From contig CAVXZC010000012.1 in NCBI GenBank assembly GCA_963766165.1, positions 594,607-658,606 of the forward strand: 64,000 nt of DNA. Reading direction: 5' to 3'. The number at the start of each line of letters is the position of its first letter. Position 1 is the stretch's first letter. Source of the stretch: an uncultured Solirubrobacteraceae bacterium (GTDB lineage Bacteria > Actinomycetota > Thermoleophilia > Solirubrobacterales > Solirubrobacteraceae). A program made the translations under genes and the position numbers. Positions 1 to 17,879 of this stretch are shown one piece after another. The notes below the pieces were generated by a model, which saw only the letters and a program-made list of their open reading frames with translations, did not search any database and had not been told where the DNA came from.

Positions 1-1084
1 AGAGCTGCGCGAAGCGCTCCAGCGACATGCCGCGCCGGTTGACCGCCTCGTCGCGCACGGCGGGCAGCATCGCCTGGATGATGTTGATCCCCAGCGGCGC
101 CTTGAAGATGTCGCCGGCCGCGGCCTGCTTCTCCTCGCGGGTGTAGGGCGAGTGGTCGGAGCCGAGCGAGTCGATCGTCCCGGCCAGGACGTGCTCCCAC
201 AGCCGCTCGACGTCCGCGCGCGCCCGGATGGCCGGAGCGCAGCGCGCCCAGGCCCCCAGCCGCACCAGGTCGTCGTGGTCCAGCAGCAGGTACTGCGGGC
301 ACGTCTCGCAGGTCACCCGGGCGCCGGCCGCCTTGGCCTTCCGCACGATCTCGGCGCCCTCGGGCGTGGAGACGTGGGCCACGTGCAGCCGCGTCCCGGT
401 GTGGGTGGCGAAGCGCACCACGCGCGCGATCGCCTCCGCCTCGACCAGCGGGGGACGCGACTCGGCGTGGGCCAGCGGATCGGTCCGGCCGGCCGCGGCC
501 ATCCGGGCCAGCCCCGCCTGCAGCAGCGAGTCGTTCTCCGCGTGCACGATCAGCAGCGCGTCGAGCTCCGCCAGGTGCTCGAGCGCCTCCAGCAGCGTCG
601 CGTCGTCCAACCGCGGATAGCCGGGGCTGGACGCGCACATGTAGGCCTTGAACGCCCGCACGCCCTGTTCCTGCAGCGCGGCCAGCTCGTCGCGGGTCTG
701 GCCCGCCGCCGCCGCGTAGAGCGCGAAGTCGCAGATCGACGCCCGCTCGGCCAGCCCGCGCTTGATGGCCAGCGACTCCGGGTCTCGCACGAGCGGGTCG
801 GCCTGCGGCATCTCCCCGACCGTGGTGATGCCGCCGGCCACGGCCGAGGCGGTGCCCGGCCCGAAGCCCTCGCGCTGGGCCTTCGACGGCTCGCGCAGGT
901 GCGTGTGGATGTCCACGCCGCCGGGGAGGACGACCCTCCCCGTGGCGTCGAGGCGCTCGCCCGCGACCTCGCCGGCGTCTCCGACGAGCGCGGCGATGCG
1001 CCCATCCTCGATCACGATGTCGACGTCGCGCACGCCGTCCGCGAGGACGACGCGCGCGCCGGAGACGACGGCGAGCCCGGGCAT
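1..1084 (-). CDS. Cyclic amidohydrolase (allantoinase/dihydroorotase/hydantoinase family), 5' part in window; gene continues past window start
   Basis: Reverse-strand translation from ATG at 1082-1084: MPGLAVVSGARVVLADG...GGVDIHTHLREP...AFKAYM...VHAEND...SDHSPY (metal-binding HxH, carbamylated-Lys and His/Asp motifs of cyclic amidohydrolases). Not in ORF track because it runs off the window. Start lies 5 nt downstream of the binding-protein stop codon. Confidence 0.8.
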   Translation of the reverse strand, partial: MPGLAVVSGARVVLADGVRDVDIVIEDGRIAALVGDAGEVAGERLDATGRVVLPGGVDIHTHLREPSKAQREGFGPGTASAVAGGITTVGEMPQADPLVRDPESLAIKRGLAERASICDFALYAAAAGQTRDELAALQEQGVRAFKAYMCASSPGYPRLDDATLLEALEHLAELDALLIVHAENDSLLQAGLARMAAAGRTDPLAHAESRPPLVEAEAIARVVRFATHTGTRLHVAHVSTPEGAEIVRKAKAAGARVTCETCPQYLLLDHDDLVRLGAWARCAPAIRARADVERLWEHVLAGTIDSLGSDHSPYTREEKQAAAGDIFKAPLGINIIQAMLPAVRDEAVNRRGMSLERFAQL

Positions 1085-1089
1085 GGCCG

Positions 1090-2730
1090 CTAGCCCTTCC
1101 ACGCCACCCAGAGCGGGTAGTGCGCCGTGCTCTGGATGAAGAAGTCGTGGACGTCGTTGGCGAACGCGAACCGGTTGGTCGGGTTGATCAGCCAGAGGAT
1201 CGGCAGCTTGTCCATGATGATCCCCTGCCACTTGCCGAGCGCGGCGCCGCGCTCGGTGGTGTCCAGCATGCCCTGGGTCGAGTAGTAGAGCTTGTCCGCG
1301 CTCTTGTCGACCCAGCCGGTGTAGCCCGACTTCGCCCCGCCGGTGGAGACACAGCAGAACAACATGTTCGAGTTCGGCTCCAGGTTGTCGCTGGTGCCGT
1401 AGGTGTAGGACATCTGGTACTGCTGCTTCTGGAGCTTCTCGAACGCCGTCGTCTGGTCGACCGGCTCGATCTTGAGCGTGATGCCGATCTGCTTGAGCTC
1501 GCTCTGCATGATCGTGCCGATGGCCGCGGCCACCTGGTCGCCGGCCGGCGGGCTGAACGACACCGAGAAGCCCTTCGGGTACTTCGACTTGGCCATCAGC
1601 GACTTCGCCTTGGCCAGGTCGTACGCGTAGCCGTACTGGTCGGTGTGGAAGTAGACGCCCGGGTCGATCGGCGAGGTCGCCGCCTTGGCGTTGCCGAAGA
1701 ACACGCCCTTGACGATCGCCTGGCGATCGATCGCGTAGTTCATCGCCTTCACCACGTTCGGGTCGCGGAACTGCGGCACGTCGGTCATGTTCAGCGCGCT
1801 GGCGATCACGCCGAGCTGCGGCGTGGCCGCGGCGACGAGCTTCGGATCGGCGTCGATCGGACCGATCTGGTTGAAGGGCACGTCCATCACGGCGTCGAGC
1901 TGGCCGCCGCGCAGCTCGGTCATGCGCGTGTTGTCGTTCGGGATGTAGTCGAGCCGGACCTCTGACAGATACGGGTACTTGTGGCCGCAGGCGTCCTTGC
2001 CCCAGTAGTAGGGGTTGGCCTTGAGCAGCACGTGGTCGCCGGGCTTGAACTCCGCCACGGAGAACGCCCCGGAGCCCATCGGGTGCGTCTTCGGGTCCAT
2101 GCCGCCCTCGATGGCCTTCTTGGACATGATCGACGCGCCCCACAGCGTGAGGTCGTTCAGGAACGGCGCGTATGGCTTGCCGAGCGTGACCTTGATCGTG
2201 TGCGGGTCGACGACCTCCGTGCTCTTGATCGCCGACAGCGTCCAGTTGTTGACCGACTTGGGCGCCTCGACCCGGTCGAACGAGAACTTGACGTCGTCGG
2301 CCGTGACCGGCGTGCCGTCGGAGAACTTCGCGTCCGGCCGCAGGTGGAAGGTGTAGACGCGGCCGCCGTCGGAGACATCCCACGACTTCGCGAGGCCGGC
2401 GACGACCTTCTTCGCGTCGGGCGCCAGCTCGACCAGCTGGTCGTAGATGTTCATGTCGGCCCACAGCGAGCCGTTGTCCTGCGTGTTGTGGGCGTCGAAG
2501 CTGATGACGTCCTGGTCGACGCCGAAGTTGAGCGTGCCGCCGCGCTTGACGTGGCCGCAGTCGCCACCGCCGGCGGCGGCGGCCTTGGCGAGGGTCTTGC
2601 CCTGGCCGGAGCTGCCGGAGCCGCTGGAACTCGATCCGCCGCCGCAGCCGGCGACCAGCGCGGTGACGCTGGCGATCGCGGCCCAGCCGTACACGCGCGC
2701 GGGCCCGCGCGCCCTGCGAAGGAACACCAT
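1090..2730 (-). CDS. ABC transporter substrate-binding lipoprotein, family 5 (peptide/nickel/opine type)
   Basis: Track ORF 1090..2784. Likely start is the internal ATG (MVFLRR...) at 2730, preceded by GAGGAGG. Signal peptide with lipobox LVAGC; long SBP_bac_5-like body. Track GTG at 2784 would overlap the predicted -10 box. Confidence 0.85.
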   Translation of the reverse strand: MVFLRRARGPARVYGWAAIASVTALVAGCGGGSSSSGSGSSGQGKTLAKAAAAGGGDCGHVKRGGTLNFGVDQDVISFDAHNTQDNGSLWADMNIYDQLVELAPDAKKVVAGLAKSWDVSDGGRVYTFHLRPDAKFSDGTPVTADDVKFSFDRVEAPKSVNNWTLSAIKSTEVVDPHTIKVTLGKPYAPFLNDLTLWGASIMSKKAIEGGMDPKTHPMGSGAFSVAEFKPGDHVLLKANPYYWGKDACGHKYPYLSEVRLDYIPNDNTRMTELRGGQLDAVMDVPFNQIGPIDADPKLVAAATPQLGVIASALNMTDVPQFRDPNVVKAMNYAIDRQAIVKGVFFGNAKAATSPIDPGVYFHTDQYGYAYDLAKAKSLMAKSKYPKGFSVSFSPPAGDQVAAAIGTIMQSELKQIGITLKIEPVDQTTAFEKLQKQQYQMSYTYGTSDNLEPNSNMLFCCVSTGGAKSGYTGWVDKSADKLYYSTQGMLDTTERGAALGKWQGIIMDKLPILWLINPTNRFAFANDVHDFFIQSTAHYPLWVAWKG

Positions 2731-2778
2731 CGTTTTGAGCCCTCCTCGACTCCCGCGGCAGCCGGGTAGCCACCGCAT

Positions 2779-2811
2779 CTTCACTCTAGATGCAGAATTT
2801 CACTCTGTCAA
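2779..2811 (-). promoter_or_regulatory. Predicted sigma70-like promoter with embedded operator: TTGACA-17nt-TAGAGT on minus strand, two AGAGTGAA direct repeats spaced 20 bp; copy 1 of a 33-bp element repeated at 14631-14663
   Basis: Read directly: plus strand cttcactctagatgcagaatttcactctgtcaa; 27/33 identical to the 14631-14663 copy. Lies between the ATPase stop (2808) and the binding-protein start. Confidence 0.5.
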
Positions 2812-3782
2812 TCGTCATAGAGATGGCAGGCCACGGCCCGCCCGCTTGCCATCACGTGCCTGGCGGGGTACTCCCGGCGGCAGCGATCCATGGCGAACGG
2901 ACAGCGCGGATGGAAGTGGCAACCCGACGGCGGGTCCAGCGGGCTCGGCAGGTCGCCCTCGACACCGCGCTCGGAGCGGGGCTCCTCGGCGTCGATCAAA
3001 GGGACGGCGGCGAGCAGCGCCTGCGTGTAGGGGTGCAGCGGCTCCTCGAACAGCTCCGCCGTCGCCGCCTCCTCGACCACCCGCCCCAGGTACATGACCA
3101 CGATCCGCGTGCTCATGTGGCGGACGACGCCGAGGTCGTGCGAGATGAACAGGTAGGTCAGGTCGAGGTCGTCCTGCAGCGTGACCAACAGGTTGAGGAT
3201 CTGCGCCCGGATCGACACGTCGAGCGCCGACACGGCCTCGTCGGCCACGATGAACCGCGGGCCGACGGCCAGCGCGCGGGCGATCACGATGCGCTGGCGC
3301 TGCCCGCCGCTGAACTCGTGCGGGCGCCGGTCGCCCATCGCCGGCTCCAGGCCGACCCGCTCGAGCAGCTCGTCCACCCGCCCGCGGCGCTCGCCGGGCG
3401 GGCACAGCTCGTGCACGCGCAGCACCTCGTCGAGCGCGCCGCGCACGGTCTGGCGCGGGTTCAAGGACGAGTAGGGGTCCTGGAAGATGATCTGGATCTC
3501 GCGCCGCAGCCGGCGCACGGCGCGCTTGTCGGCCATGTCGACGGCCTGGCCGGCGAACCGCACCTCACCGCTGGTCGGCTTCTCCAGCGCGAGCAGGACC
3601 CGGCCCAGCGTGCTCTTGCCGCAGCCGCTCTCGCCGACCAGCCCGACCGTCGTCCCGCTCGGCATGGCGAACGACACGTCGTCGACCGCGCGCAGCACGT
3701 CGGCGCCGCGGCCGAACATCCCGCGCCCGACCCGGTAGTGCTTGCTCAGGCCACGGGCCTCGACGAGCGGCGTGTCAGACAA
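2808..3782 (-). CDS. ABC transporter ATP-binding protein (DppF/OppF-like)
   Basis: Walker [10 protein letters not shown], signature LSGGQRQR, oligopeptide-ABC C-terminal domain. Start chosen as TTG ([13 protein letters not shown]) overlapping the upstream gene stop; alternative ATG at 3824. Confidence 0.85.
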
Positions 3783-4803
3783 TCGGGGCCTCCACGGCCG
3801 CGTGGCGCCGGCAGCGCGTCGCATGCGCCGGCGCGACGTCGAGCAGCTCCGTTTCCCACTCCCGGCAGGCCTCCTCGGCGAGCGGGCAGCGCGGCTCGAA
3901 CACACACGTGCGGGGCGCCTCCCGGAGGCTGGGCGGCGAGCCGCCGATCGGCTTCAGGAACCGGCTCGGGTTCGCCGCCCGGGGCAGCGACTCGACCAGC
4001 CCCACGGTGTACGGGTGCCTGGGTGCGCGCAGCAGCTCGCGCACCGGCGCCGTCTCGACGAGCTGTCCGCCGTACATCACGGCCACGCGGTCGCACGTCT
4101 GGACGATCACCCCGAGGTCGTGGCTGACCAGCACGATGCTCATCCCGAGCTCGGCCCGCAGTCGCCTCAGCAGGCGCAGGATCTGGTCCTGGATCGTCAC
4201 GTCGAGCGCGGTGGTCGGCTCGTCGGCCAGCAGCAGCTTGGAGCCGCAGGCCAGGGCGATGGCGATCAGCACGCGCTGACGCATGCCGCCGCTGAACTCG
4301 TGCGGGTACTGGCGCAGCCGCCGCTCGGGCGAGCCGATGCCGACCTGCTGCAGCAGCTCGACCGCCTTCGCCCGGCGCTGCCCGCGGTCGAGGTCGGTGT
4401 GCCGGCGCAGCGTCTCCGTCAGCTGCTCGCCGACCTTCAGGACCGGGTTCAGGTAGCTCATCGGGTCCTGGAAGATCATCGAGATGCCGGCGCCGCGGAC
4501 CGCCCGCAGCTCGCGCTCGCGCATCGTCACCAGGTCGTCGCCGTGGAAGCGCGCCTCGCCCGTCACGTGCGCCGAGCCGGGCAGCAGCCCGATCATGGCC
4601 CGCAGCGTCGCGCTCTTGCCGCAGCCGCTCTCTCCCACCAGGCCGAAGATCTCGCCGGAGCGGACGTCGAAGCTGACGCCGTTGACCGCGTGCACCGTGC
4701 GGGTGCCGTCGTAGCGGACCGCCAGGTCGCGCACCGCCAGCACCGTCTCCGTCGGCCGCGCCGCCGTATCGGCGGCCAGGACCCGGTCGTCCGCCGCGCC
4801 CAT
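3775..4803 (-). CDS. ABC transporter ATP-binding protein (DppD/OppD-like)
   Basis: C-terminal 343 aa of track ORF 3775..5619 ([10 protein letters not shown]...[10 protein letters not shown]...FSGGMRQRV...). ATG at 4801-4803 overlaps the permease stop (ATGA). The 614-aa track ORF is a frame-extension artefact. Confidence 0.85.
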
Positions 4804-5687
4804 CACCGCTCCCCCCGCAGCATGTCGGCCAGGTTGTCGCCGATCAGGCTCAGCCCGACCCCGAACAGCGCGATCATCACGCCCGGTACGGCGGCGAGCC
4901 ACCAGTTGGTGGCGATGTACTCCTGGGCGTCGGCGATCATCTTGCCCCACTCCGCCGTGGGGTCGGCCACGCCGAGCCCCAGGAAGCCGAGCGCCGCGCC
5001 GATGCTCACGTTGTTGACCGCGTCGACCATGGCGAACACGAGCGCCGGCGCGGCCGCGTTGGGCAGCACGTGGCGGAACATGATCCGCCAGTTGCCGTAG
5101 CCGAGCGCGCGGGCCGCGGTCGTGTAGTCGCGCTGCTTGAGCACGAGCACCTCGCCGCGCACGATGCGCGCGTAGGCCACCCAGGTGACCGCCCACATGG
5201 CGATCAGCATGTTCAGCAGCCCGCCGCCGAGGATCGCGATGATCGCCAGCACGAGCACGATCAGCGGGAAGGCGAAGACGATGTCGACGAGCCGCATCAT
5301 CACCGAGTCGACGCGGCGGCCCGAGTAGCCCGCCACAAGGCCGTAGAGCGAGCCGAACGTGCAGGTCACCGTGGTCGCGGCGAACGCGATCAGCAGGTCG
5401 ACGCGGCCGGCGTAGAGGACGCGGCTGAGCAGGTCGCGCCCGTACTGGTCGGTGCCGAGCAGGTGCCCGGGCGAGAATGGCGGCTCCAGCGCGTGCAGCA
5501 GGTCCTGCTGGTTGGGGTCGTAGGGCGCGAGCAGCGGCGCGAACACGGCGGAGAGCGCGATCAGGACGACGAGCACGATCCCCACGATCAGCGGCACGCG
5601 CCCGCGCAGCCGCACCCACGACAGCGGCGTGCGCGGCGTGGCGACGGTGACGGGCGCGGCGACGGGCTCGTTGAGGAGGTCGCTCAT
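4803..5687 (-). CDS. ABC transporter permease (DppC-like)
   Basis: 294 aa, multi-TM, BPD-transporter-like hydrophobic segments. Confidence 0.9.
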   Translation of the reverse strand: MSDLLNEPVAAPVTVATPRTPLSWVRLRGRVPLIVGIVLVVLIALSAVFAPLLAPYDPNQQDLLHALEPPFSPGHLLGTDQYGRDLLSRVLYAGRVDLLIAFAATTVTCTFGSLYGLVAGYSGRRVDSVMMRLVDIVFAFPLIVLVLAIIAILGGGLLNMLIAMWAVTWVAYARIVRGEVLVLKQRDYTTAARALGYGNWRIMFRHVLPNAAAPALVFAMVDAVNNVSIGAALGFLGLGVADPTAEWGKMIADAQEYIATNWWLAAVPGVMIALFGVGLSLIGDNLADMLRGER

Positions 5688-5688
5688 C

Positions 5689-6630
5689 TCAGTCGAACGA
5701 GACGCGCGGGTCCATGACGGCGTAGGCGACGTCGGTCATCAGGTTGATCGCCACGACACAGAAGCCGAAGACGAGGATGATCCCCTGCACGACCGAGAGG
5801 TCGCGGGTGTTGATCGAGGAGGCCAGCAGCTGGCCGAGGCCCGGCAGCGCGAACACGTTCTCGATGATCACGGTGCTGCCGATCAGGTAGGCGAGGTTGA
5901 CGCCGATCACCGTCACGCCCGCGATCAGGGCGTTCCGCAGCACGTGCCGGTTGAGCACGCGCAGCGTCCCGAGGCCCTTGGCCTTCGCGGTGTCCAGGTA
6001 GTCCGCCTGCAGCACCCCGAGGATGCTGTTGCGCAGCGTGCGGGTGAGGATCGCCCCGAAGCCGAGCGCGATCGTCAGCGCCGGGAGGAACAGGTGGTAG
6101 AGGTGGCCGGTGACGCCTGTCCCGTAACCCGAGACCGGGAAGATCGGGAACTTGAGGCCGAACAGCAGGATGAGGATCAGCCCCACCCAGAACGGCGGCA
6201 TGGCGAAGATGACCAGGAACGAGACGCGCGTGGTCTGGTCGGCCACGCCGTTGCGCCGCAGCGCGCTCAGCGTGGCCAGCGGGACGCTGATGACGATCGC
6301 CAGCACGGTCGAGTAGACGGCCAGCCACAGCGTCACCGGCAGCCGCTCGCTGATCAGCGAGGTGACCGACTGGTGGTAGTAGATCGACTGCCCGAGGTTC
6401 AGCCGGAACAGGTTCTCCATGAACAGGCGGTACTGCTCGGCGACCGACTTGTCGAGCCCGAGGTTGTGGCGCAGCACCGCGGCACGCGCCGGCGTCCAAT
6501 GGGCGCCGAGCATGACCGAGGTGGGGTCGCCCGGGATCAGCCGCAGGATGAAGAACGCGATGATCGTCACGCCGACCACCACGGGCACGGCCTGGAGCAG
6601 GCGCCCGCGCAGGAAGCGGAAGCGGCCCAT
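5689..6630 (-). CDS. ABC transporter permease (DppB-like)
   Basis: 313 aa, multi-TM, typical DppB/OppB N-terminus MGRFRFLRGRLLQAVPVVVGVTIIAF. Confidence 0.9.
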   Translation of the reverse strand: MGRFRFLRGRLLQAVPVVVGVTIIAFFILRLIPGDPTSVMLGAHWTPARAAVLRHNLGLDKSVAEQYRLFMENLFRLNLGQSIYYHQSVTSLISERLPVTLWLAVYSTVLAIVISVPLATLSALRRNGVADQTTRVSFLVIFAMPPFWVGLILILLFGLKFPIFPVSGYGTGVTGHLYHLFLPALTIALGFGAILTRTLRNSILGVLQADYLDTAKAKGLGTLRVLNRHVLRNALIAGVTVIGVNLAYLIGSTVIIENVFALPGLGQLLASSINTRDLSVVQGIILVFGFCVVAINLMTDVAYAVMDPRVSFD

Positions 6631-7362
6631 CTACGCCAGGCCCTCCTGCGCCAGGCGCCAGGCGTCGTAGCGGCCGCCGGAGATCGCCGGGTCGCGCGAC
6701 GCGGCCAGCGCCACGAAGCCCGGCGCCAGCTCGGCCGGGTCGACCCACTCCGCGCGCGCCGCGGCGTCATACGTGGTCTCGGACATCGGCGTGTGCATGG
6801 CCTTGCCGGGCGTGACCGAGACGACGCGGACGCCGAACGGCTCGAGCTCCAGCGCGAGCGTCCGCGTCAGGCCCTCGAGCCCGAACTTCGACGGGCAGTA
6901 TGCGGACTCGCCGACGAAGCCGCGGATCCCCGACTCGGAGGTGACGTTGACGATCAGCCCGTTCCCGCGCGCCTTCATGGCGGGGATGAACGCGCGCGAG
7001 TACAGGAACGGCCCGCGGAGGTTCGTCGCCACGATCTTGTCCCACTCGGCCGGCGTGGTGTCCTCGATCGGCTTGACCGCGATGATCCCGGCGTTATTGA
7101 CCAGGATGTCGAGCCGGCCGTGGCGGTCCAGCACGGACGCGGCCACTTCACCGGCCCGCTCCGCGTCGCCCACGTCGGCGGCCACCGCGTCCAGCGACAG
7201 GGCCTCCGCGACCGCGACGGCACGGACCTCCTCCAGCTCGGAGGCGTGCAGCGACAGCGCGACCACGCGCGCTCCCGCCCGGGCCAGGCCGAGCGCGACG
7301 GCCCGGCCGAGCCCGGCCCCGGCGCCCGTGACGAGCGCCACCCGGTCCTGCAGCGCGCCCAT
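6631..7362 (-). CDS. SDR family oxidoreductase
   Basis: TGAGAGLG Rossmann motif, catalytic YCPSK, 243 aa. Confidence 0.9.
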   Translation of the reverse strand: MGALQDRVALVTGAGAGLGRAVALGLARAGARVVALSLHASELEEVRAVAVAEALSLDAVAADVGDAERAGEVAASVLDRHGRLDILVNNAGIIAVKPIEDTTPAEWDKIVATNLRGPFLYSRAFIPAMKARGNGLIVNVTSESGIRGFVGESAYCPSKFGLEGLTRTLALELEPFGVRVVSVTPGKAMHTPMSETTYDAAARAEWVDPAELAPGFVALAASRDPAISGGRYDAWRLAQEGLA

Positions 7363-7369
7363 GGCGCCG

Positions 7370-8263
7370 TTACGCCGCCGCCTCTTGCCCCGCGCGCAGC
7401 CCCAGCAGGTCGGCGAGGTTGCGCTCGGACCGCAGCTCGGGCTCGATCCGGCCGGCCGCCGCGGTCATCAGCGGCGTGACGCCGGGACCGTGGCCGCCGC
7501 GCGGGCTGTCGCCGTGGGCCACCACGCCGATCGTCAGCGCGCCGGCCAGGTAGCCCGGGCCCCAGCGCGTGTCGAAGTCGCGCAGCGCGACGATGTCGCC
7601 GAGGCGCAGGGCGTCGAGACCGGCCGCGCGCAACGCCGCCTCGTCCTCGGTCTGGATCTGGATCGCGCCGCTCTCGGCCTGCAGCCCCGCGCCCGCGCCC
7701 GCGAGCAGCGGCGGCACCTCGGCGACCACCGGGACCGTCAGCACGCCCGGCTCGCCGGCCCGCACCTCGAGCGCGTCCAGCAGCGCCGGCGAGCAGCTCT
7801 TGAGCTGCACGTCGGGGTAGTCGCTGAGCGCGAGGCTGCGGCCCAGCGCGCGGATCAGGATCTTGTCCTGGATCGCCAGGCGCTCGAGCACGTCGGGGGC
7901 GAAGTGGACGATCACGTGGTCGGCGAAGCGGCCGCTCTTGCCGATCACGGTCCCGCGCGCGCCCTGGGCGCTCCCACTGGCCACGATCGCCTCGTTGCCG
8001 ACGCAGGCGATGACATTCAGCGCGTGGTTGGGCCCGTCGGCCGGGCTCTTCACGCTCACGCCCGGCTGGACCATGTCCGCCGTCCAGCCGAACGCGCTGT
8101 CGCCGACGCGGACGTTGTAGACGATCCCGCCGGGCGGGACGAGCAGGCGCGGGCGCCCGTCGGCGCCGATCACGTACGGGCTCGCCGGCAGCGTCGGCAG
8201 CTCGGGCGAGGAGACCTGGCCCTGGACGGCGACGCCGACGATCTGGCTGCGGTTGTCGAACAC
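7370..8263 (-). CDS. Conserved hypothetical protein, paralog A of a tandem pair (size and pattern reminiscent of DUF4438-type proteins; unverified)
   Basis: 297 aa, GTG start with GAGGGGGA ribosome-binding site. Shares GDSAFGW, CVGNEA and HGDS..GHGPGV blocks with the next gene. Confidence 0.7.
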   Translation of the reverse strand: MFDNRSQIVGVAVQGQVSSPELPTLPASPYVIGADGRPRLLVPPGGIVYNVRVGDSAFGWTADMVQPGVSVKSPADGPNHALNVIACVGNEAIVASGSAQGARGTVIGKSGRFADHVIVHFAPDVLERLAIQDKILIRALGRSLALSDYPDVQLKSCSPALLDALEVRAGEPGVLTVPVVAEVPPLLAGAGAGLQAESGAIQIQTEDEAALRAAGLDALRLGDIVALRDFDTRWGPGYLAGALTIGVVAHGDSPRGGHGPGVTPLMTAAAGRIEPELRSERNLADLLGLRAGQEAAA

Positions 8264-8279
8264 GACGTTCCCCCTCGAA

Positions 8280-9200
8280 TCAGCCGGTCACGGCGTAGGA
8301 GCTGACATGGTCGCCCGGCCGGCGGGCCTCGATCTCTTCCCGCGTGCGCAGGCCCAGCCGGACGGCGATGTTGGCCTCCGGGTCGCGCACCGTGGTGATG
8401 ACATGCTCCTCGCGGCAGGTGAGCAGATCCAGGACCCCCGGTCCATGTCCGGTCCAGGCCGAGTCGCCGTGGATGATGAGCCCGATGGTCATCGCGCCCT
8501 GGCGGTAGCCGCGGCCCCACATGTGGTTCGTGTCCGGGACGGCCACGATGTCGCCCAGGCGCAGCCGGTCCAGGCCGAGCTCGGCGATGTGCGCCCGGTC
8601 GCCGGTCATGAAGTCCTGGTCGACATAGTCGGCCATCAGCTCGGCGCCGGAGCCCATCAGATACGCGGGGATCTCGTTCACCACCGGCACGAGCAGCGCG
8701 CCGTCGGGCGCGGTGTCGAGCCGCAGCGCCTCCAAGAGCCGCGGGCTGACCTTGTGGGTGAGCACCCCCGGGTGGTCGAGCAGCTCGAGCCCCGTGCCGA
8801 CGGCCCGGATCTGGATCGTGTCGCCGATGGCCAGCAGCTCGATGTCCTCGGGCGGGAAGTCGACGAGCAGGTGCGCGTGCTCGCCGGTCAGCGTCCCGCG
8901 CGCGCCGGCGCAGGCGCCCGAGGTGACCACGGCCTCGTTGCCCATGCAGGCCAGGTAGTGGAGCGCGTGCTCGGGGCCGTCGAGTGGGTTGCGCACCGAG
9001 ACGCCGGGCTCCAGATGGTCGACCTCCCACCCGAAGGCGGGATCGCCGCAGCGGTGGGTGAAGCAGATCCCGGCCATCCCGATGCCCACCGTGGCCCTGC
9101 CCTCGGACGTGGCCTGGTACGGCAACCGGGTCAGCCCCGGCGGCCACACCTCCCCGGAGACGGACACCTCGACCAGCGAGTCGGCGTTCGTGCGCAGCAT
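8280..9200 (-). CDS. Conserved hypothetical protein, paralog B of the tandem pair
   Basis: Real start MLRTNADSLVEV at 9198-9200 (ATGA overlap with upstream stop). Shares GDPAFGW, CMGNEA and HGDSAWTGHGPGV blocks with paralog A. Track ORF 8280..9767 is over-extended. Confidence 0.7.
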   Translation of the reverse strand: MLRTNADSLVEVSVSGEVWPPGLTRLPYQATSEGRATVGIGMAGICFTHRCGDPAFGWEVDHLEPGVSVRNPLDGPEHALHYLACMGNEAVVTSGACAGARGTLTGEHAHLLVDFPPEDIELLAIGDTIQIRAVGTGLELLDHPGVLTHKVSPRLLEALRLDTAPDGALLVPVVNEIPAYLMGSGAELMADYVDQDFMTGDRAHIAELGLDRLRLGDIVAVPDTNHMWGRGYRQGAMTIGLIIHGDSAWTGHGPGVLDLLTCREEHVITTVRDPEANIAVRLGLRTREEIEARRPGDHVSSYAVTG

Positions 9201-10186
9201 CAGCCCTCCTTCAAGACGTGCAGCGGCGCCTCGCCGCGGGCGAAGCGGACGACGTTGGCCAGCACGTCGCTCATCTGGTTCACCCGCGCGCCGCCGGTCC
9301 CGCCGCCGATGTGCGGCGTGACGATGACGTTGGCCAGTGCGAGCAGGGGATTGTCGTACGGAACAGGCTCCTCCACGAACACGTCGAGCCCGGCGCCGCG
9401 CAGGCGACCGGACGAGAGCGCGTCCACCAGCGCCGGCTCGTCGACGAGCGGACCGCGCGCGATGTTGACGAGGTACGCCTCGGGGCGCATCAGCGCGAGC
9501 TCGCGGGCGCCGATGATCTTGTCGCTCTCCGGCGAGTGCGGCAGCGACAGCAGGACGAAGTCCGACGCGGCGAGCAGGTCGTCGAGCGGCCTGTACGCGA
9601 CGCCAAGCCGGCGCTCGATCGCCTCCGGCAGCCGCGTCCGCTTCGTGTAGAGCACGTCCATCCCGAGCGCCCGCGCCCGCACGGAGACCTCCGTGCCGAT
9701 CTCGCCGTAGCCGACGATGCCCAGCGTGTGGCCGTGCACCTCGAGCAGGTGCGGCAGCTTCATCCACTGGAAGGCGAACGTGCGCTGGCTGGTCGGCGCG
9801 GGCGTCAGGCCCAGGTCGCGGTAGCCGCCCTGCACCGTGGACGCGTGGGCCACGATCAGCTGCTTGGACAGCGCGAGGATGAGCGTCGTGGCCAGTTCGG
9901 CCACGGCGATGCAGCCGCGCAGCGGCATCGTCGCCACCGTCACGCCGGCCGCGCCTGCGGCGCCCAGGTCGATGCCGTCCTCGCGCGCGCCGTACTTCTG
10001 CAGGAAGCGCGCGCCCGGGGCGGTCGCCAGCACCGCCGCGTCGACCGCGGCCGACTTGGTCACCAGCGCGTCGGCGCCCGCGCCGTCCAGGTTGACGACC
10101 CGGAACCCCTCGGGGACGAGCTCGTTGCCCAGCTCGAGGTCGGCGTCGGGCTGCTCGTCCACCCAGGCGATGACGAACTCGCTCAT
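9200..10186 (-). CDS. D-isomer-specific 2-hydroxyacid dehydrogenase family (NAD-binding)
   Basis: 328 aa; GIVGYGEIG dinucleotide-binding motif and conserved R/E/H triad context. Confidence 0.9.
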   Translation of the reverse strand: MSEFVIAWVDEQPDADLELGNELVPEGFRVVNLDGAGADALVTKSAAVDAAVLATAPGARFLQKYGAREDGIDLGAAGAAGVTVATMPLRGCIAVAELATTLILALSKQLIVAHASTVQGGYRDLGLTPAPTSQRTFAFQWMKLPHLLEVHGHTLGIVGYGEIGTEVSVRARALGMDVLYTKRTRLPEAIERRLGVAYRPLDDLLAASDFVLLSLPHSPESDKIIGARELALMRPEAYLVNIARGPLVDEPALVDALSSGRLRGAGLDVFVEEPVPYDNPLLALANVIVTPHIGGGTGGARVNQMSDVLANVVRFARGEAPLHVLKEG

Positions 10187-11358
10187 GCCGCGAGCACCGC
10201 CTCGATGCGCTCCATGGCCACGATCAGCTCGGGCTCGGGGACGAGCCAGGCCAGCCGCATGTAGTCCGCCCAGGCCTCGCCGAAGCCGGTGCCCGGGAAG
10301 ATCAGCACGTGCGCCTCCTCCAGCAGCTTGAGCGACAGCTCGGGCGCCGGGATGCCGGTCGAGGCGGCGTTGAGGAACACGTAGAAGCCGCCGCGCGGCT
10401 CCCCGTAGCTGATGCCGAGCCGGTCGAGCGAGTCGAGGACGATCTTGCGCCGGCGCGTGTAGATCTGCCGGTACTCCTCGACGACGTCCATCGGGCCGGT
10501 GAGCGCGGCCACGCCGGCCGCCTGCGAGACCACCGGCGCGCAGGTGCTGACGATCGCCTTCCGGCGCCGCGCCTCGGCCATCACCGGGTGCGGGCCGCCC
10601 AGGTAGCCGAGCCGCCAGCCCGTCATGCAGAACGTCTTCGAGAAGCCGTTCACGGTGACGGTGCGCTCGGACATGCCGGGGAGCGATCCGATGCTCAGGT
10701 GCTCGTGCGGGTCATAGACGAGCTTCTCGTAGATCTCGTCGGAGATGACGTAGAGGTCGTGGCGCTGCGCCACGCCGGCCAGCGCGCGCAGGTTCTCGGG
10801 CGTGACCGTGCCCGCCGTGGGGTTGTTGGGCGAGATCAGCAGCAGCGCCTTCGTGCGCGGCGTGATCCGCTTCTCCACCTCGTCCGGATCGAGGTCGAAC
10901 CCGTCGGCCTCGCGCGTGGGCACCGAGACCATCGTCGCCCCGGCCATCTTGATCGCGATGTCATAGGACGTGTAGCGCGGGTCGGGCACGAGGATCTCGT
11001 CCCCCGGCTCCAGCAGCGCCTGCACGGCCAGGAAGAGGCCCTCCTGGCCGCCGGTGGTGACCACCACGCCGTCCGGACCGCCGACGTCCACGCCGTTCTC
11101 GCGCCGCAGCTTGTCCGCTACCGCGGCCCGCAGCTCCGGCGTGCCGGCGGGGTCGCTGACCCGGTCGGCGTCGCCCCGGTCGATCGCCGCCTTGGCCGCC
11201 TCCACGATGTGGGCCGGCGTCGGCAGGTCCGGGTCCCCGCGGCCGAGCGCGATCACGTCGTCGACGCGCGCGGCCAGGTCCATCAGGCCATAGCGGATAC
11301 GGGTGCCGCCGTCCGCGAGCCGATCGCCCCCGGGGCGCGTGGTGGTCGGCTCGGTCAT
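10183..11358 (-). CDS. PLP-dependent aminotransferase, class I/II
   Basis: Start MTEPTTT at 11356-11358 (ATGA overlap). SKTFCMTGWRLGY lysine motif region. 829-aa track ORF is an extension artefact. Confidence 0.9.
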   Translation of the reverse strand: MTEPTTTRPGGDRLADGGTRIRYGLMDLAARVDDVIALGRGDPDLPTPAHIVEAAKAAIDRGDADRVSDPAGTPELRAAVADKLRRENGVDVGGPDGVVVTTGGQEGLFLAVQALLEPGDEILVPDPRYTSYDIAIKMAGATMVSVPTREADGFDLDPDEVEKRITPRTKALLLISPNNPTAGTVTPENLRALAGVAQRHDLYVISDEIYEKLVYDPHEHLSIGSLPGMSERTVTVNGFSKTFCMTGWRLGYLGGPHPVMAEARRRKAIVSTCAPVVSQAAGVAALTGPMDVVEEYRQIYTRRRKIVLDSLDRLGISYGEPRGGFYVFLNAASTGIPAPELSLKLLEEAHVLIFPGTGFGEAWADYMRLAWLVPEPELIVAMERIEAVLAA

Positions 11359-12410
11359 GCGGTCTCCTCGTGATCGTGGGCGGTGAGCGCGGCGGCCAGC
11401 CGCCGGCCGGCGAGCCGCAGCCGCTCGGGCGACTCGGTGAGCGACAGCCGCAGCCAGCCGGACAGCCCGACGGTGTCGCCGGGCGCCGCGCGCACGTCCG
11501 CCGCTGCGGCCGCGTCGTCGCCGCCCTGGACGAGCACGTGCCAGCCCGCCGCCGGCGCGACGCACCGGGCGCCGCCCGCGTCGAGCGCGGCCACGAGCGC
11601 GGCGCGCCGCGCGCGCACCTCGGCCTGCGCCTCGCCCACGCGGTCCTGCGGGCCGCGCACGGCGGCCAGCGCGGCGTACTGGGAGACCGCGGGGCTGCAG
11701 ATGCTCAACGCCTGCTTGAGCGCGATCATCGGGCCGAGCAGCGCCTGCGGCCCGGCCAGGTAGGCCACCCGCCAGGCCTCCAGGCCCCAGATCGCCGAGA
11801 AGCCGTTGATGGTGACGGTGCGCTCGGCCATCCCGGGCAGCGCGGCGATGCTGCGATGGACGGCGCCGTCGTGCAGCAGCGGCTCGAGGCTCTCCACCGC
11901 GACCACGGTCAGGTCGTGCTCGCCGGCCACGCTCGCGAGTGCGGCCAGCTCCGCGTCGCCGGGCGCGATCAGGCCCGGCGCTCGCAGCACGATCACCTTG
12001 GTCCGGTCGGTCACCGCCTGGGCCACGGCGTCGGCGTCGAGGGCGAGCCCGCGCTCGGGGTCGGACGCCAGCGCGCGCGGCGTGGCCCGGGCCAGGCTCA
12101 CGATGTCGGCGTCTCCGGCGCGGGCGGGCGCGGCCAGGATCGCCTCGTCGCCGGGCTCGAGCAGCACGTGCAGCGCGACCCACAGCGCCTCCTGCTCGCC
12201 GCAGGTGATGAGCACCTCGCGCTCGGGGTGCACCGCGATCCCGTTCTCGGCGGCCAGCTTCTCCGCCACGGCGCGGCGCAGGGGATTGATCCCCGGGCGC
12301 GTCGTGTAGTGCGTCTCGCCCGCGTCGAGCGCGTCCTTGGCCCCTTGGCGGACGTGCGCGGGCGTCGGGAGGCCGAGGTGGTCGGCGGACAGGTCGATCA
12401 CATCGGTCAT
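11355..12410 (-). CDS. PLP-dependent aminotransferase, class I/II (divergent paralog)
   Basis: Start MTDVIDLSADHLGLPTPAH at 12408-12410 (ATGA overlap). Same fold pattern as the previous gene. The canonical Lys region is altered, so function is uncertain. Confidence 0.75.
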   Translation of the reverse strand: MTDVIDLSADHLGLPTPAHVRQGAKDALDAGETHYTTRPGINPLRRAVAEKLAAENGIAVHPEREVLITCGEQEALWVALHVLLEPGDEAILAAPARAGDADIVSLARATPRALASDPERGLALDADAVAQAVTDRTKVIVLRAPGLIAPGDAELAALASVAGEHDLTVVAVESLEPLLHDGAVHRSIAALPGMAERTVTINGFSAIWGLEAWRVAYLAGPQALLGPMIALKQALSICSPAVSQYAALAAVRGPQDRVGEAQAEVRARRAALVAALDAGGARCVAPAAGWHVLVQGGDDAAAAADVRAAPGDTVGLSGWLRLSLTESPERLRLAGRRLAAALTAHDHEETA

Positions 12411-13534
12411 CGGGTCGCCTCCACGGCGCGTCGCAGCTCGAGCGCGACCCGGCGGACGTCGTCGGCGGCGAGCTCTGGGTAGATGGGCAGGCACAGCAGC
12501 TCTTCCGCGAGCCGGTCGGTGTTCGGGAACGACCCGGCCGGGCGGTCGCGGTAGACGGGCTGCCGGTGCAGGGGCGGGACGTAGAGGAGGGAGGTCTCGA
12601 CTCCGCGGCCGGCGAGGTCGGCTCGCACCGCGTCGCGCCGGGGGACGCGGACGACGTAGTTGCGGTAGGCATGCGTCACGCCGGCCGGGACGCTCGGCGT
12701 GATGACCGGCGAGCCGGCCAGCAGCTCGTCGTAGAGCGCGGCCACCGCCCGGCGGCGGCGCGCCGCGTCCGGCAGGTGGCGGAGCTTCACGCGCAGGATC
12801 GCGGCCTGCAGCAGGTCGAGGTGGCTGTGGTAGCCCTCCGCCTCCAGGCGCTGGCGCCCGTCCGGGCCGGCCATCGCCTCGCGGAACGGCTCGCCGTACC
12901 CGGCCAGCAGCCGGGCGCGATGGGCCAGGTCCGCGTCGTCGGTGGTGATCAGGCCGCCGTCGCCGTAGGCGCCGAGCACCTTGGCCGGCGCGAAGCTGAA
13001 GGAGGCGATGCGGCCGAGCGAGCCGGCCGGGCGGCCCCCCACCGTGGCGCCGAAGGCCAGCGCCGCGTCCTCCACGAGCGCGACGCCGCGTGGCTCGGCC
13101 AGCGCGCGCAGCTCGCCCACCGGCGCGGGGAGGCCATACAGGTGGACGGCCACGATCGCCTTGGTGCGCGGCGTGATCGCCGCGGCCACCCGCTCCGGGT
13201 CGAGGTTGTGGGTGGCGAGATCGACGTCGGCCCACACGAAGGTCGCGCCGGTGTGGCTGATCGCCGCGCAGGTGGAGATGTCGGTGTTCGGCGGCGCGAT
13301 CACCTCGTCGCCCGGCCCGACGCCGAGCGCGCGCAGGGCGAGGAACAGCGCGGCGAGCCCGCTGCCCACCGCGACGGCGTGGGCGGTCCCGCACGCCGCG
13401 GCCAGCTCGTCCTCGAGGCGCCACAGGTCCTCGCCCCGCTCGTACTCGCCACCGGCGAGGATCGCCGCGATGGCCGGGTCGAGCTCGGCGCGCAGCGCGG
13501 CGTAGCCGGCGCCGAGGTCGCTCGTGGGGATCAA
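12407..13534 (-). CDS. DegT/DnrJ/EryC1/StrS-family PLP aminotransferase
   Basis: ELIPTSDLGAGYAAL N-terminus. TTG start with GGAGG 4 nt upstream and TTGA overlap with the Ldh_2 gene stop. About 375 aa. Confidence 0.85.
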   Translation of the reverse strand: MIPTSDLGAGYAALRAELDPAIAAILAGGEYERGEDLWRLEDELAAACGTAHAVAVGSGLAALFLALRALGVGPGDEVIAPPNTDISTCAAISHTGATFVWADVDLATHNLDPERVAAAITPRTKAIVAVHLYGLPAPVGELRALAEPRGVALVEDAALAFGATVGGRPAGSLGRIASFSFAPAKVLGAYGDGGLITTDDADLAHRARLLAGYGEPFREAMAGPDGRQRLEAEGYHSHLDLLQAAILRVKLRHLPDAARRRRAVAALYDELLAGSPVITPSVPAGVTHAYRNYVVRVPRRDAVRADLAGRGVETSLLYVPPLHRQPVYRDRPAGSFPNTDRLAEELLCLPIYPELAADDVRRVALELRRAVEATR

Positions 13535-14595
13535 TTCGCCTCCAGCGGCGCGACGTCCAGCGCCTCGGCTGCGGCTGCCAGCTCGTCGAGGCGCTCGGCG
13601 TCGATCGGTACGCCCTCGCGTCGCCGCTGCTGCGCGCGCTCCCACTCGATCTGGCCGGGCAGCTTGATCTCCTGCGCGCCCGGCGCGAGCGGGGCGGAGA
13701 CGATCTGCTCGATCAGCGCGTCCATCCGCGCCCGGAAGTCGGCGACCGGCGTGAAGCGGCCGATGTCGATGGCGATCAGGAGGTGGCCGACGTCCTGGTG
13801 GTCGGGCCCGAAGCAGTCCAGCCCGAACGCCGATCCCGTCAGCACGCCCGTCAGCGCGTCGACGACCACCGCGAGCGCGTAGCCCTTGGGCCCGCCGAGC
13901 GGGAACAGCGCGCCGAGCATCGCCGCGGACGGGTCAGTGGTCCGCTCGCCGCCCTCCGTATAGGCCCAGTCGTCGGGAATCGGCAGCCCGAGCCGCTCGT
14001 GCCAGCGGATCATGCCCTTGCCCGACGTGCTGTTGGCCATGTCGAGCAGCACGGGCCATTCGCGGCCGCTGGGCACGGCGACGGCCCAGGGGTTCGTCCC
14101 CACCACCGCCGTCGCGGCGCCCCAGGGCGCGATCTCCGGGCCGGCGTTGGTGAACGACAGGCCGATGCACCCGCGCTCGAGCGCGCGCTCGGCGTAGTAC
14201 GCGGCGACGCCGAAGTGCGTGCTGTCGCGCACGCCGACGGCGCCGATGCCGGACTCGGCCGCCAGGTCCAGCGCGAGCTCCATCGCCCGCGTCGCGGCCA
14301 CGTGGCCGGAGGCGCGGTGCGCGTCGAGGAGCGCCGTGGCCGGCGCCCGGCTCACCGTCTCCAGCCGCGCCGCCGGGTCGATCACCCCGGCTTGGATGCG
14401 GGCGTGGTAGCTGCCGATCCGCGAGACGCCCTGGCCCTGGCCGGGCAGCGAGCGCAGCGAGCCGGCCAGCAGCACGTCGGCGAACGTCTCGGCGTCGGGC
14501 GCCCGGAAGCCCATGCGCGCGGCGCAGCCGCGGCAGAAGCGCTCGAGCTCCGGGTACGGGACGAGGACCGTCGGTACGGTGGGCGCAGAGGACAT
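13531..14595 (-). CDS. Ldh_2 family (malate/L-sulfolactate/ureidoglycolate/piperideine-2-carboxylate) dehydrogenase or reductase
   Basis: 354 aa; GTNPWA, STSGKGM and HxG motifs typical of PF02615. First gene of the operon. Confidence 0.85.
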   Translation of the reverse strand: MSSAPTVPTVLVPYPELERFCRGCAARMGFRAPDAETFADVLLAGSLRSLPGQGQGVSRIGSYHARIQAGVIDPAARLETVSRAPATALLDAHRASGHVAATRAMELALDLAAESGIGAVGVRDSTHFGVAAYYAERALERGCIGLSFTNAGPEIAPWGAATAVVGTNPWAVAVPSGREWPVLLDMANSTSGKGMIRWHERLGLPIPDDWAYTEGGERTTDPSAAMLGALFPLGGPKGYALAVVVDALTGVLTGSAFGLDCFGPDHQDVGHLLIAIDIGRFTPVADFRARMDALIEQIVSAPLAPGAQEIKLPGQIEWERAQQRRREGVPIDAERLDELAAAAEALDVAPLEAN

Positions 14596-14630
14596 GGCGA
14601 GATCGCCCGGAGGCGATCGCCGGGACGCAG

Positions 14631-14663
14631 TTTCAATCTAAGCGCAGATTTTCACTCTGTCAA
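14631..14663 (-). promoter_or_regulatory. Copy 2 of the 33-bp promoter/operator element: TTGACA-17nt-TAGATT with AGAGTGAA and AGATTGAA direct repeats
   Basis: Plus strand tttcaatctaagcgcagattttcactctgtcaa. Lies between the XRE gene stop (14671) and the Ldh_2 start (14595). The leader also has the palindrome GGCGATCGCC (14612-14621). Confidence 0.5.
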
Positions 14664-14670
14664 GCCGCGC

Positions 14671-15255
14671 TCAGAACGTGGGCGGGGTGCAGACGAAGAT
14701 CATCTCCACCGTCTCCGCGCCCGCGTTGCCGAACGAGTGCACGAGCGCGCTGTCGAACGAGATCGAGTCGCCGGCCTCCAGCAGGTAGACCATCCCATTG
14801 ACCGTCACCGACAGCGCGCCGGAGACCACGGTCATGAACTCCTCGCCGGCGTGCGCGAACGGCGTCTCCTCGGTGGTGACGCCCGGCGGGATGATGTAGC
14901 GGACCACCTGCAGCGAGCGATCGAGGTCGGGGGTCATCATCAGCGCCGAGACGTCCTCGTCGTCGATCACGTGCGGGCTCAGCTCGCGCTGCTCGCCGCG
15001 GCGCACCACGGGCGACGCCGTGCGCTCCACGTGCAGCAGCCGCGCCACCGGGACGTCGAGCGCGTGGGCGATCTTGATCAGCGTGAAGAAGGCCGGATTG
15101 CCCTTGCCGCGCTCGAGCTGGCTGAGCCCGCCGATGCTCAGACCGCTCGTCCGGGAGATGTCCTCGAGCGTCAGCCCCTGCTCCTGACGCAGCCGCCGCA
15201 GCTGCTCCCCGAAGGCGCTCTGCAGGATGACCGGGTCAGGATGTCGATCCGACAT
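14671..15255 (-). CDS. XRE-family HTH transcriptional regulator with C-terminal cupin domain
   Basis: LRRLRQEQGLTLEDISRTSGLSIGGLSQLERGKGNP (HTH_XRE) followed by a cupin_2-like beta-barrel. Confidence 0.9.
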   Translation of the reverse strand: MSDRHPDPVILQSAFGEQLRRLRQEQGLTLEDISRTSGLSIGGLSQLERGKGNPAFFTLIKIAHALDVPVARLLHVERTASPVVRRGEQRELSPHVIDDEDVSALMMTPDLDRSLQVVRYIIPPGVTTEETPFAHAGEEFMTVVSGALSVTVNGMVYLLEAGDSISFDSALVHSFGNAGAETVEMIFVCTPPTF

Positions 15256-15323
15256 GGACCACGAGTCTAAGCCTGAGCCGAGCGCCTTGACGACGGTCTG
15301 AGCGGGCTCTACGGTGACCCGGG

Positions 15324-17830: not shown

Positions 17831-17879
17831 CTCGGCTCTCCTCTCCCGCCCCGGGTCGCCTACCCGGTGAGCGCCTTCG

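Follow-up and report, generated by a model that had tools for sequence, protein, structure and literature searches.

DUF4438 is a small protein family (884 clusters at 50% identity in a set of 1.84 billion representatives) that covers both archaea and bacteria. Its founder, TM1086 of Thermotoga maritima, came from structural genomics, and a structure has been available since 2008 without a function; no paper in the searchable literature assigns one to DUF4438 or to TM1086. Here we describe a tandem pair of DUF4438 genes, termed A and B, that lies in a catabolic operon of an uncultured Solirubrobacteraceae bacterium. The stretch analysed, referred to as the window, comprises 64,000 nucleotides (nt) of contig CAVXZC010000012.1 (GenBank assembly GCA_963766165.1; positions 594,607 to 658,606 of the forward strand). 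B and A are retained side by side and in the same order in several bacterial phyla, and A alone has lost part of the conserved polar residues of the family, which points to the two proteins as candidate subunits of one hetero-oligomeric enzyme.

Besides TM1086, two described pathways and one described type of assembly are the closest points of reference. In the cysteate/sulfolactate route, an aminotransferase is followed by ComC, a sulfolactate dehydrogenase of the Ldh_2 family, and then by the two-subunit lyase SuyAB. The hyu clusters combine a hydantoinase, an M20 N-carbamoyl-amino-acid amidohydrolase, a racemase and a transporter. The third is the hetero-oligomer built from a live and a dead paralogue, of which the aminotransferase pair of the present operon is a likely example.

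Results

The gene pair and its family

Both open reading frames (ORFs) lie at the coordinates given in a first-pass annotation that had been made from the letters of the window alone and that stated no strand; both are on the minus strand. The length given there for A stands, and that for B (307 residues) had counted the stop codon. The two genes, with lengths in amino acids (aa), and the spacer between them are as follows.

7370..8263, minus strand: gene A, DUF4438 subunit A, the divergent copy (GTG start, 297 aa)
8280..9200, minus strand: gene B, DUF4438 subunit B, the canonical copy (ATG start, 306 aa plus stop)
8264..8279, minus strand: B–A spacer, 16 nt from the B stop to the A GTG, holding a GGGGGA ribosome-binding site

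The G+C content of the window is approximately 74%, and A and B have G+C fractions of approximately 0.96–0.98 at third codon positions (GC3) and approximately 0.5 at second positions (GC2), as expected of real genes at this composition. In the same GC3/GC2 frame analysis the real genes of positions 1–15,300 are all on the minus strand, and the plus-strand ORFs that overlap A and B were rejected as shadow ORFs (GC2 of 0.7–0.8). Shine–Dalgarno-like sequences precede A (GGGGGA) and B (AAGGAGG), the start codons fit the N-termini of homologues (MFDNR..., MLRTN...) and no promoter-like or terminator-like site was seen in a scan of the spacer. The two proteins share 135 of 295 positions (46%) with 8 gap positions (BLASTP, E = 2e-79), far beyond chance, and all of the paired motifs quoted earlier are present: GDSAFGW/GDPAFGW, CVGNEAIVASG/CMGNEAVVTSG, ARGTV/ARGTL and HGDSPRGGHGPGV/HGDSAWTGHGPGV.

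Each protein is matched end to end by the two DUF4438 Pfam domains. The N-terminal domain PF14505 (gathering threshold 24.9 bits) is covered over its full profile by A (160.4 bits, E = 2.5e-47) and B (136.8 bits, E = 4.8e-40), and the C-terminal domain PF20999 (DUF4438_C; threshold 27 bits) is matched with 130.6 bits (E = 3.8e-38) and 136.7 bits (E = 5e-40), respectively. TM1086 (PDB entries 3DCL and 3N99) is the sole solved relative (E = 3e-60), and the pair shares the fold of this type structure. The guess that the proteins were 'DUF4438-like', offered unverified, was therefore right. By homology A counts as a DUF4438 member, yet its sequence marks it as atypical, since it lacks the residues equivalent to His108, Asp194 and Asp196 of B.

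The remark that no catalytic family could be recognised also holds. The NCBIfam scan of A and B returned no match, and a family profile compared with the PDB sequences at E values up to 10 met, beyond TM1086, just the metallo-β-lactamase L1 at chance level (E = 0.18). The nearest non-self fold matches are the ring-forming 'crown' barrels (F1/V1-ATPases, HerA), Gar1 and the domain-2 barrels of EF-Tu. From these comparisons the DUF4438 fold appears to be an orphan without a recognisable catalytic relative. Alignment of the N domain with the C domain (hhalign) recovered a 14-column GD-box match alone, with a probability of 8%, and thus gave no sign of an internal duplication between the two barrels. 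A chymotrypsin-like Ser/Cys protease, a candidate prompted by the GDS motif and the Ser/Cys swap, was rejected because the trypsin-like double-barrel fold was not found. The two TM1086 crystal entries contain 5 and 30 chains per asymmetric unit, and a published table on crystallization methods gives more than 1 MDa per asymmetric unit; the chain counts suggest that TM1086 assemblies are built from pentamers. That table is the one relevant mention in the searchable literature, beside C. elegans allele names of no relation and a Pfam number cited wrongly.

Conserved pairing and age of the duplication

Relatives were sought in one genome per species, which gave 326 relatives, and the pair counts below rest on the best 80 loci. 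These belong to Thermoleophilia/Solirubrobacteraceae, other Actinomycetes, Dormibacterota and many Anaerolineae/Aggregatilineales/Phototrophicaceae, together with one member of the Trueperaceae (Deinococcota) and one metagenome-assembled genome (MAG) labelled Pleurocapsa. The best identity to the window among the genome relatives is 70%, so that the species of the window is absent from the genomes scanned, and the operon order of the window is repeated in loci L003–L006. A B-type gene lies directly upstream of an A-type gene in 80/80 loci, the three seeming exceptions being two contig ends and one frameshifted B. In place of the spacer of the window, the stop of B and the start of A overlap by 4 nt (ATGA) in 51 of the 77 loci in which this was measurable, so that strict co-occurrence, fixed order and translational coupling are all found across lineages. 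Four further contexts, reached through A-type or B-type proteins of other lineages including Thermomicrobiaceae and Dormibacterota, hold the pair again.

The frameshifted copy belongs to a MAG of Candidatus Flexifilum affinis (locus L062, 9576–10426), in which B is split into two frames with high-scoring segment pairs at 9576–10022 and 10001–10426. B is intact in every other locus of the 80; the split copy is either a frameshift caused by an error of the long-read assembly or a pseudogene.

Three protein sets, obtained with A, B and TM1086 (T) as queries, each form a monophyletic clade, with identities of approximately 64–72% within and 41–44% between clades; the three clades are equidistant, and midpoint rooting joins B to T with A outside. 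Equidistance and the B-to-A tandem in every locus bear out the proposal of an old duplication kept side by side. Among the distance-matrix (mirror-tree) correlations of the cluster genes, that between A and B is the highest (r = 0.98, partial correlation 0.61) and lends weak support to their association; the partial correlation between A and the aminotransferase (0.60) is nearly equal.

The TM1086-type genes are single-copy in Thermotoga, Caloranaerobacter, Zhenhengia and 80 archaeal-looking metagenome contigs, where their neighbourhoods show housekeeping or lineage-specific synteny and offer no functional clue. In the metagenome contigs (loci L091–L170) this single-copy lineage has a conserved synteny of its own: ribosomal protein eS26 lies approximately 50 nt downstream on the same strand in 38 loci, and 23 loci hold a 448-aa dihydroorotase/allantoinase-like amidohydrolase that is 33–35% identical to the amidohydrolases of the bacterial clusters. 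Other neighbours are a CDP-alcohol phosphatidyltransferase-like membrane protein, CBS-domain proteins, a thermosome, Alba and SerRS; the names in these contigs are putative and were read from the sequences.

Conserved residues and their one-sided loss

Conservation was assessed in alignments of 119 A-type, 119 B-type and 120 T-type sequences and in 83 family-wide representatives. The residues concerned, with window coordinates of their codons for the principal ones, are as follows.

Gene B, core polar residues: Cys85 (8946–8948), Asn88, His108 (8877–8879), His110, Asp194 (8619–8621), Asp196 (8613–8615)
Gene B, core polar residues, continued: Asp217, Asp223, His244, Asp246, Ser247 (8460–8462), His252, Asn277
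Gene A, residues kept: Cys87, Asn90, His116, Asp223/229, His250, Asp252, Ser253 (7505–7507)

B has every polar residue of the family core. Both the invariant Cys and the (H)GDS block, in which the first-pass annotation had suspected an active or metal-binding site, do rank with the best-conserved polar positions and are candidates for such a role: Cys87 (A numbering) is found in 75/83 representatives, and the GDS serine position holds Ser in 51/83 and Cys in 17/83, together 68/83. Asn90 (79/83), His250 (61/83) and His258 (63/83) in A numbering and His108 (59/83), Asp194 (56/83) and Asp196 (65/83) in B numbering are also conserved; recurrent polar positions (A numbering) are Asn4, Asp55/133/223 in the GD-box turns, Asp229 and Asn282. 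The GDS serine stands at the tip of a long β-hairpin of the C domain, where model confidence is lower, and it is 100% Ser in the A and B clades and 100% Cys in the T clade. In the homologue of Thermotoga sp. KOL6, which is 82% identical to TM1086, the conserved set is numbered Cys83, Asn86, His106, His111, Asp195, Asp197, Asp215, Asp223, His243, Cys246, His251 and Asn275.

The two paralogues differ in how much of this set they retain. Cys85, Asn88 and Ser/Cys247 (B numbering) are kept in both, whereas His108, Asp194 and Asp196 are conserved in the B and T clades and replaced in the A clade. In place of the family His, A carries Ser110, which is fixed in its clade, and where the D-x-D motif stands it has Ala and Gln, the commonest residues of the clade being Cys at the first Asp and Gln at the second. 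A also has Gln instead of a Met conserved in B and T, and a four-residue insertion (GKSGRFA), again the majority state in its clade.

A comparable arrangement is found in P0361, a 636-aa metagenome protein in which a signal peptide is followed by two DUF4438 copies, with a linker of approximately 30 residues between them. The first copy is degenerate, without the Cys, the GDS or the D-x-D, and the second is intact, so that by its sequence P0361 appears to be an independent repeat of the design of one intact and one degenerate unit. P0402 is a secreted member with a single copy, and the two secreted proteins argue against a need for cytoplasmic cofactors.

The operon and its counterparts in other genomes

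In the window, the pair lies within a 14-gene operon on the minus strand, in which adjacent genes overlap or are separated by at most 16 nt, save for one gap of 77 nt. From its upstream end, the features are as follows.

14671..15255, minus strand: regulator with HTH_3 and cupin domains, PuuR-like, upstream of the operon
14635..14663, minus strand: promoter-like site TTGACA-17-TAGATT between the regulator and Ldh_2 genes (consensus match only)
13531..14595, minus strand: Ldh_2-family oxidoreductase (type-2 malate/lactate/sulfolactate/ureidoglycolate dehydrogenase-like), first gene of the operon
12407..13534, minus strand: DegT/DnrJ/EryC1-type aminotransferase, an accessory gene
11355..12401, minus strand: pseudo-aminotransferase paralogue, 40% identical to the live copy
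10183..11358, minus strand: class-I (aspartate/aromatic-type) aminotransferase, catalytically intact (GFSK lysine, SPNNPT, SDEIY)
9200..10186, minus strand: D-isomer-specific 2-hydroxyacid dehydrogenase, glyoxylate-reductase-like; its stop overlaps the B start by 1 nt
6631..7362, minus strand: short-chain dehydrogenase/reductase (SDR), 7 nt downstream of A
2808..6630, minus strand: Opp/Dpp-type ATP-binding cassette (ABC) importer (permeases 5689–6630 and 4803–5687; ATPases 3775–4806 and 2808–3782)
2783..2811, minus strand: second promoter-like site, σ70-like (TTGACA-17-TAGAGT), at the 77-nt gap before the solute-binding protein
1090..2730, minus strand: family-5 solute-binding protein (peptide/nickel/opine type)
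2..1084, minus strand: cyclic amidohydrolase (L-hydantoinase/allantoinase/dihydroorotase-like), cut by the window edge

Among proteins of solved structure, the live aminotransferase is closest to aspartate/aromatic aminotransferases, the 2-hydroxyacid dehydrogenase to glyoxylate reductase, the Ldh_2 protein to type-2 malate/lactate and sulfolactate dehydrogenases, and the amidohydrolase to the L-hydantoinase of Arthrobacter and to allantoinases. The binding protein is closest to AapF, GsiB/YliB, DppA, NikA and the opine-binding AgaA, the ligands of which are small and amino-acid-derived. In the pseudo-aminotransferase, GFSK is changed to GFSA, which removes the Lys that binds pyridoxal 5'-phosphate, and the Asn of SPxNPT and the Asp and Tyr of SDEIY are missing as well; judged by these motifs, the aminotransferase pair looks like a live/dead heterodimer. 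A dead aminotransferase is also present in Dormibacterota and in locus L083, and its counterpart in Chloroflexota is a protein of 223–277 aa without a Pfam match.

For the 54 genome loci whose flanks are complete, genes within 10 kb of the pair were counted.

Intact aminotransferase: 51/54 loci
Ldh_2: 49/54 loci
Short or dead aminotransferase-like gene: 44–51/54 loci
Small glyoxalase/VOC protein: 43/54 loci
OppB: 43/54 loci (permeases 39–43/54)
SBP5: 40/54 loci
2-Hydroxyacid dehydrogenase: 32–33/54 loci
GntR: 28–30/54 loci
SDR: 26/54 loci
Amidohydrolase: 21–22/54 loci
M20: 16/54 loci
M14: 15/54 loci
DegT aminotransferase: 3/54 loci, in actinobacterial and dormibacterial clusters only

In the Chloroflexota clusters an M20 enzyme directly precedes the amidohydrolase, and the clusters of other lineages carry M20, M14, M24 or AstE-type hydrolases. 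Judged by sequence relationships, the common denominator of the cluster appears to be a hub of 2-amino, 2-oxo and 2-hydroxy acids, made up of the aminotransferase, Ldh_2 and the D-2-hydroxyacid dehydrogenase and supplied by the amide-bond hydrolases and the peptide/opine-type importer. The NCBIfam equivalog scores of the neighbours are all far below cut-off, so the pathway is not among the named ones; the pathways considered for the substrate, those for allantoin, hydantoin, ergothioneine, sulfolactate, murein peptides and mannityl opine, were rejected because none fits all of the conserved genes.

In the Chloroflexota version of the cluster (L089/L171, positions 1–8900), a block divergent from the pair encodes a GntR/FCD regulator, an NAD-dependent epimerase/dehydratase, two GFO_IDH_MocA oxidoreductases, a 461-aa protein of unknown kind and an ABC importer. 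This block, taken with the actinobacterial DegT enzyme, hints at a possible sugar or polyol part in the substrate, such as an opine-type or Amadori-type conjugate would have.

Some further features of the window concern the operon or its surroundings. The site at 2783–2811 may serve as a promoter inside the operon, through which the binding protein and the amidohydrolase would be expressed more strongly. A 127-aa ORF (15324–15707, plus strand) diverges from the regulator gene; it has coding-like GC3/GC2 and no Pfam match and is kept in place at 56–58% identity in the Solirubrobacteraceae loci L005 and L006. Farther upstream, 15704–18830 and 19611–20345 (both minus strand) encode three proteins: one of 702 aa that resembles GH15 glucodextranases/glucoamylases, one of 316 aa from the M19 membrane-dipeptidase family, and one of 244 aa that combines a DNA polymerase β thumb with an HHH domain. 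In other loci none of them is conserved beside the DUF4438 cluster.

Discussion

We favour, with a probability of about 0.5, the reading that B and A are two subunits of one hetero-oligomeric DUF4438 enzyme that serves a pathway-specific step. Their co-occurrence, fixed order, stop/start overlap and one-sided residue loss argue for a hetero-oligomer in which B is canonical and A auxiliary, as do the P0361 fusion and, weakly, the highest distance-matrix correlation. The tight gene spacing in the window and the one promoter-like site upstream likewise speak for this reading. Translational coupling would supply the two in equal amounts, with B as the canonical and probably catalytic subunit and A as a diverged partner from which part of the ancestral polar site is gone. 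The first-pass annotation had proposed a heterodimeric enzyme for a pathway-specific step; the heteromer and the pathway step thus find indirect support, and the term heterodimer is doubtful, because the 5 and 30 chains per asymmetric unit of TM1086 make a larger ring likelier. By analogy with TM1086, the complex probably takes the form of a ring, for instance A5B5, and not that of a simple dimer.

In the pathway that we envisage, a small peptide-like or opine-like nitrogen compound would be imported through the Dpp-type ABC system, and the hydantoinase-like amidohydrolase, or the other hydrolases in clusters elsewhere, would open amide or cyclic-amide bonds. The live/dead aminotransferase pair would then turn an unusual amino acid into its 2-oxo acid, and the Ldh_2 enzyme and the D-2-hydroxyacid dehydrogenase would interconvert the 2-oxo acid and 2-hydroxy acids. 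The DUF4438 complex would supply the single step that the other enzymes of the operon cannot perform. An enzyme without an organic cofactor is favoured by the Cys/His/Asp/Ser-or-Cys set found in both bacteria and archaea, by the clade-wide Ser/Cys exchange and by the secreted members. The reaction might be a hydrolysis or an elimination, possibly metal-assisted, at a C–N or C–O bond of an amino-acid skeleton, with Ser247 of B (Cys in the TM1086 clade) acting as nucleophile or base together with Cys85, His108, Asp194/Asp196 and His244/His252. Hydrolysis or elimination seems the most plausible chemistry, with that of a racemase or dehydratase second.

Several considerations weigh against this reading. 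The TM1086-type genes are single-copy amid housekeeping, non-metabolic genes, and the ancestral role of DUF4438 may therefore be non-metabolic. The conserved Asp55, Asp133 and Asp223 stand in GD-box turns and may be structural only. Two subunit types cannot alternate in a pentameric ring. In addition, the clusters are already rich in hydrolases, and another is not obviously needed.

The alternative that survives best, although we consider it unlikely, is that the DUF4438 ring is non-catalytic and serves as a scaffold, a chaperone or a regulatory or sequestering protein that, for example, organizes or gates the aminotransferase or Ldh_2 or binds a reactive intermediate. The fold matches noted above are all binding or oligomerization modules, TM1086 forms very large assemblies, the single-copy relatives keep housekeeping company and the partial correlation of A with the aminotransferase almost reaches that of A with B. 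Against this role, Cys, His, Asp, Ser/Cys and Asn are conserved together in bacteria and archaea alike, the clade-wide exchange of Ser for Cys is typical of a reactive residue, and the secreted members have no cytoplasmic partner.

It is improbable that A and B are two non-interacting homo-oligomeric isoenzymes that act on different substrates or stereoisomers in the same pathway. Such isoenzymes would agree with the homo-oligomeric state of TM1086, with the Cys, Asn and GDS serine that both paralogues keep and with the strong purifying selection on both that the within-clade identities indicate; they would leave without a reason the invariant co-occurrence in constant order with mostly overlapping stop and start codons, the restriction to A of the loss of three family-conserved residues, and the independent fusion of two copies of which one half is degenerate.

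More improbable again is a cofactor-independent two-base racemase, epimerase or dehydratase, in which Cys85/87 and Ser/Cys247/253 (two Cys in the TM1086 clade, Cys with Ser in A and B) would act as acid and base on Cα and the product would feed the aminotransferase or Ldh_2. Such an enzyme would have its parallel in those of the proline-racemase type, in which replacement of one Cys converts an epimerase into a dehydratase. Few polar positions are as well conserved as the Cys and the Ser/Cys, and stereochemistry seems to matter in a pathway where the pair is tightly linked to an aminotransferase and to 2-hydroxyacid dehydrogenases of two kinds, nominally opposite in stereospecificity; nevertheless, no likeness to the DapF/proline-racemase or Asp/Glu-racemase folds was found, and the conserved His and Asp residues that A lacks are left unexplained. 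A self-processing enzyme of the pyruvoyl or N-terminal-nucleophile kind, which like PanD or the PrdA/GrdE proenzymes would cleave its own chain ahead of the conserved Ser/Cys, would suit the Ser/Cys alternation in the Gly-rich hairpin tip of a GD-box barrel, which superficially resembles the Gly-Ser site of PanD, but is very improbable because the TM1086 chains in 3DCL/3N99 are modelled as single chains of 280–287 of 284–290 residues, apparently uncleaved, and because the residue preceding the Ser/Cys is variable (D, A, N, S or T among the 83 representatives).

The family and its structure were known; the co-translated two-subunit form, the asymmetric degeneration and the conserved catabolic cluster are absent from the searchable literature. 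The paired form adds a stable and informative genomic context, and this context, together with the contrast between an intact and a degenerate copy that marks candidate site residues, makes the function of DUF4438 experimentally approachable. In a bolder and more doubtful version of the proposal, DUF4438 would be a new catalytic fold, composed of two unrelated GD-box β-barrels arranged in a ring with a Ser/Cys-His-Asp(-Cys) site and no organic cofactor, that performs an undescribed C–N or C–O cleavage or isomerization; the B/A heteromer would be its specialized two-subunit form. The reaction would be central to an unrecognized catabolic pathway for a peptide-like, opine-like or lactam nitrogen compound, a pathway widespread among the Chloroflexota, Actinomycetota and Dormibacterota of soil. 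Should the complex prove to be an enzyme, it would offer a new catalytic scaffold and a new route of nitrogen-compound degradation in soil phyla that are abundant but little studied; if it is a scaffold, the interest is local only. In either case the pair is a well defined and testable lead for enzyme discovery, which is reasonable rather than extraordinary.

Comparison with known systems

TM1086 itself is single-copy and presumably homo-oligomeric, stands in a housekeeping neighbourhood and has Cys at the position of the GDS serine. The present system differs in comprising two co-translated paralogues, in having Ser at that position and in its placement in a catabolic operon, and its A subunit is without His108 and Asp194/196.

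As in the cysteate/sulfolactate route, transamination and reduction by an Ldh_2 enzyme would here be followed by a two-subunit enzyme that is free of organic cofactors, although the likeness is one of analogy only. Sulfolactate dehydrogenase is the best NCBIfam match of the window Ldh_2 protein (236 bits against an equivalog cut-off of 500) and the second-best in the PDB. DUF4438 is not homologous to SuyA or SuyB, which, unlike A and B, are not paralogues of each other, and neither a sulfite exporter nor a sulfite oxidase was seen in any locus.

The hyu clusters share with the present one an amidohydrolase related to L-hydantoinase and allantoinase and, in Chloroflexota, the M20 enzyme directly before it; on this analogy the DUF4438 pair would fill the 'missing' cofactor-free step. 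In contrast to the hyu clusters, the amidohydrolase accompanies the pair in a minority of the loci counted, while the aminotransferase and Ldh_2 are nearly universal. DUF4438 is also unrelated to the Asp/Glu/hydantoin racemases, and the NCBIfam scores are below cut-off.

Finally, the pair resembles the hetero-oligomers of live and dead paralogues, such as the aminotransferase pair of the same operon, in its tandem duplication, in the loss of residues from one copy and in the co-translation of both. It differs from the aminotransferase pair in that the residues lost there are known to be catalytic, whereas the A subunit of DUF4438 retains most of the conserved polar positions.

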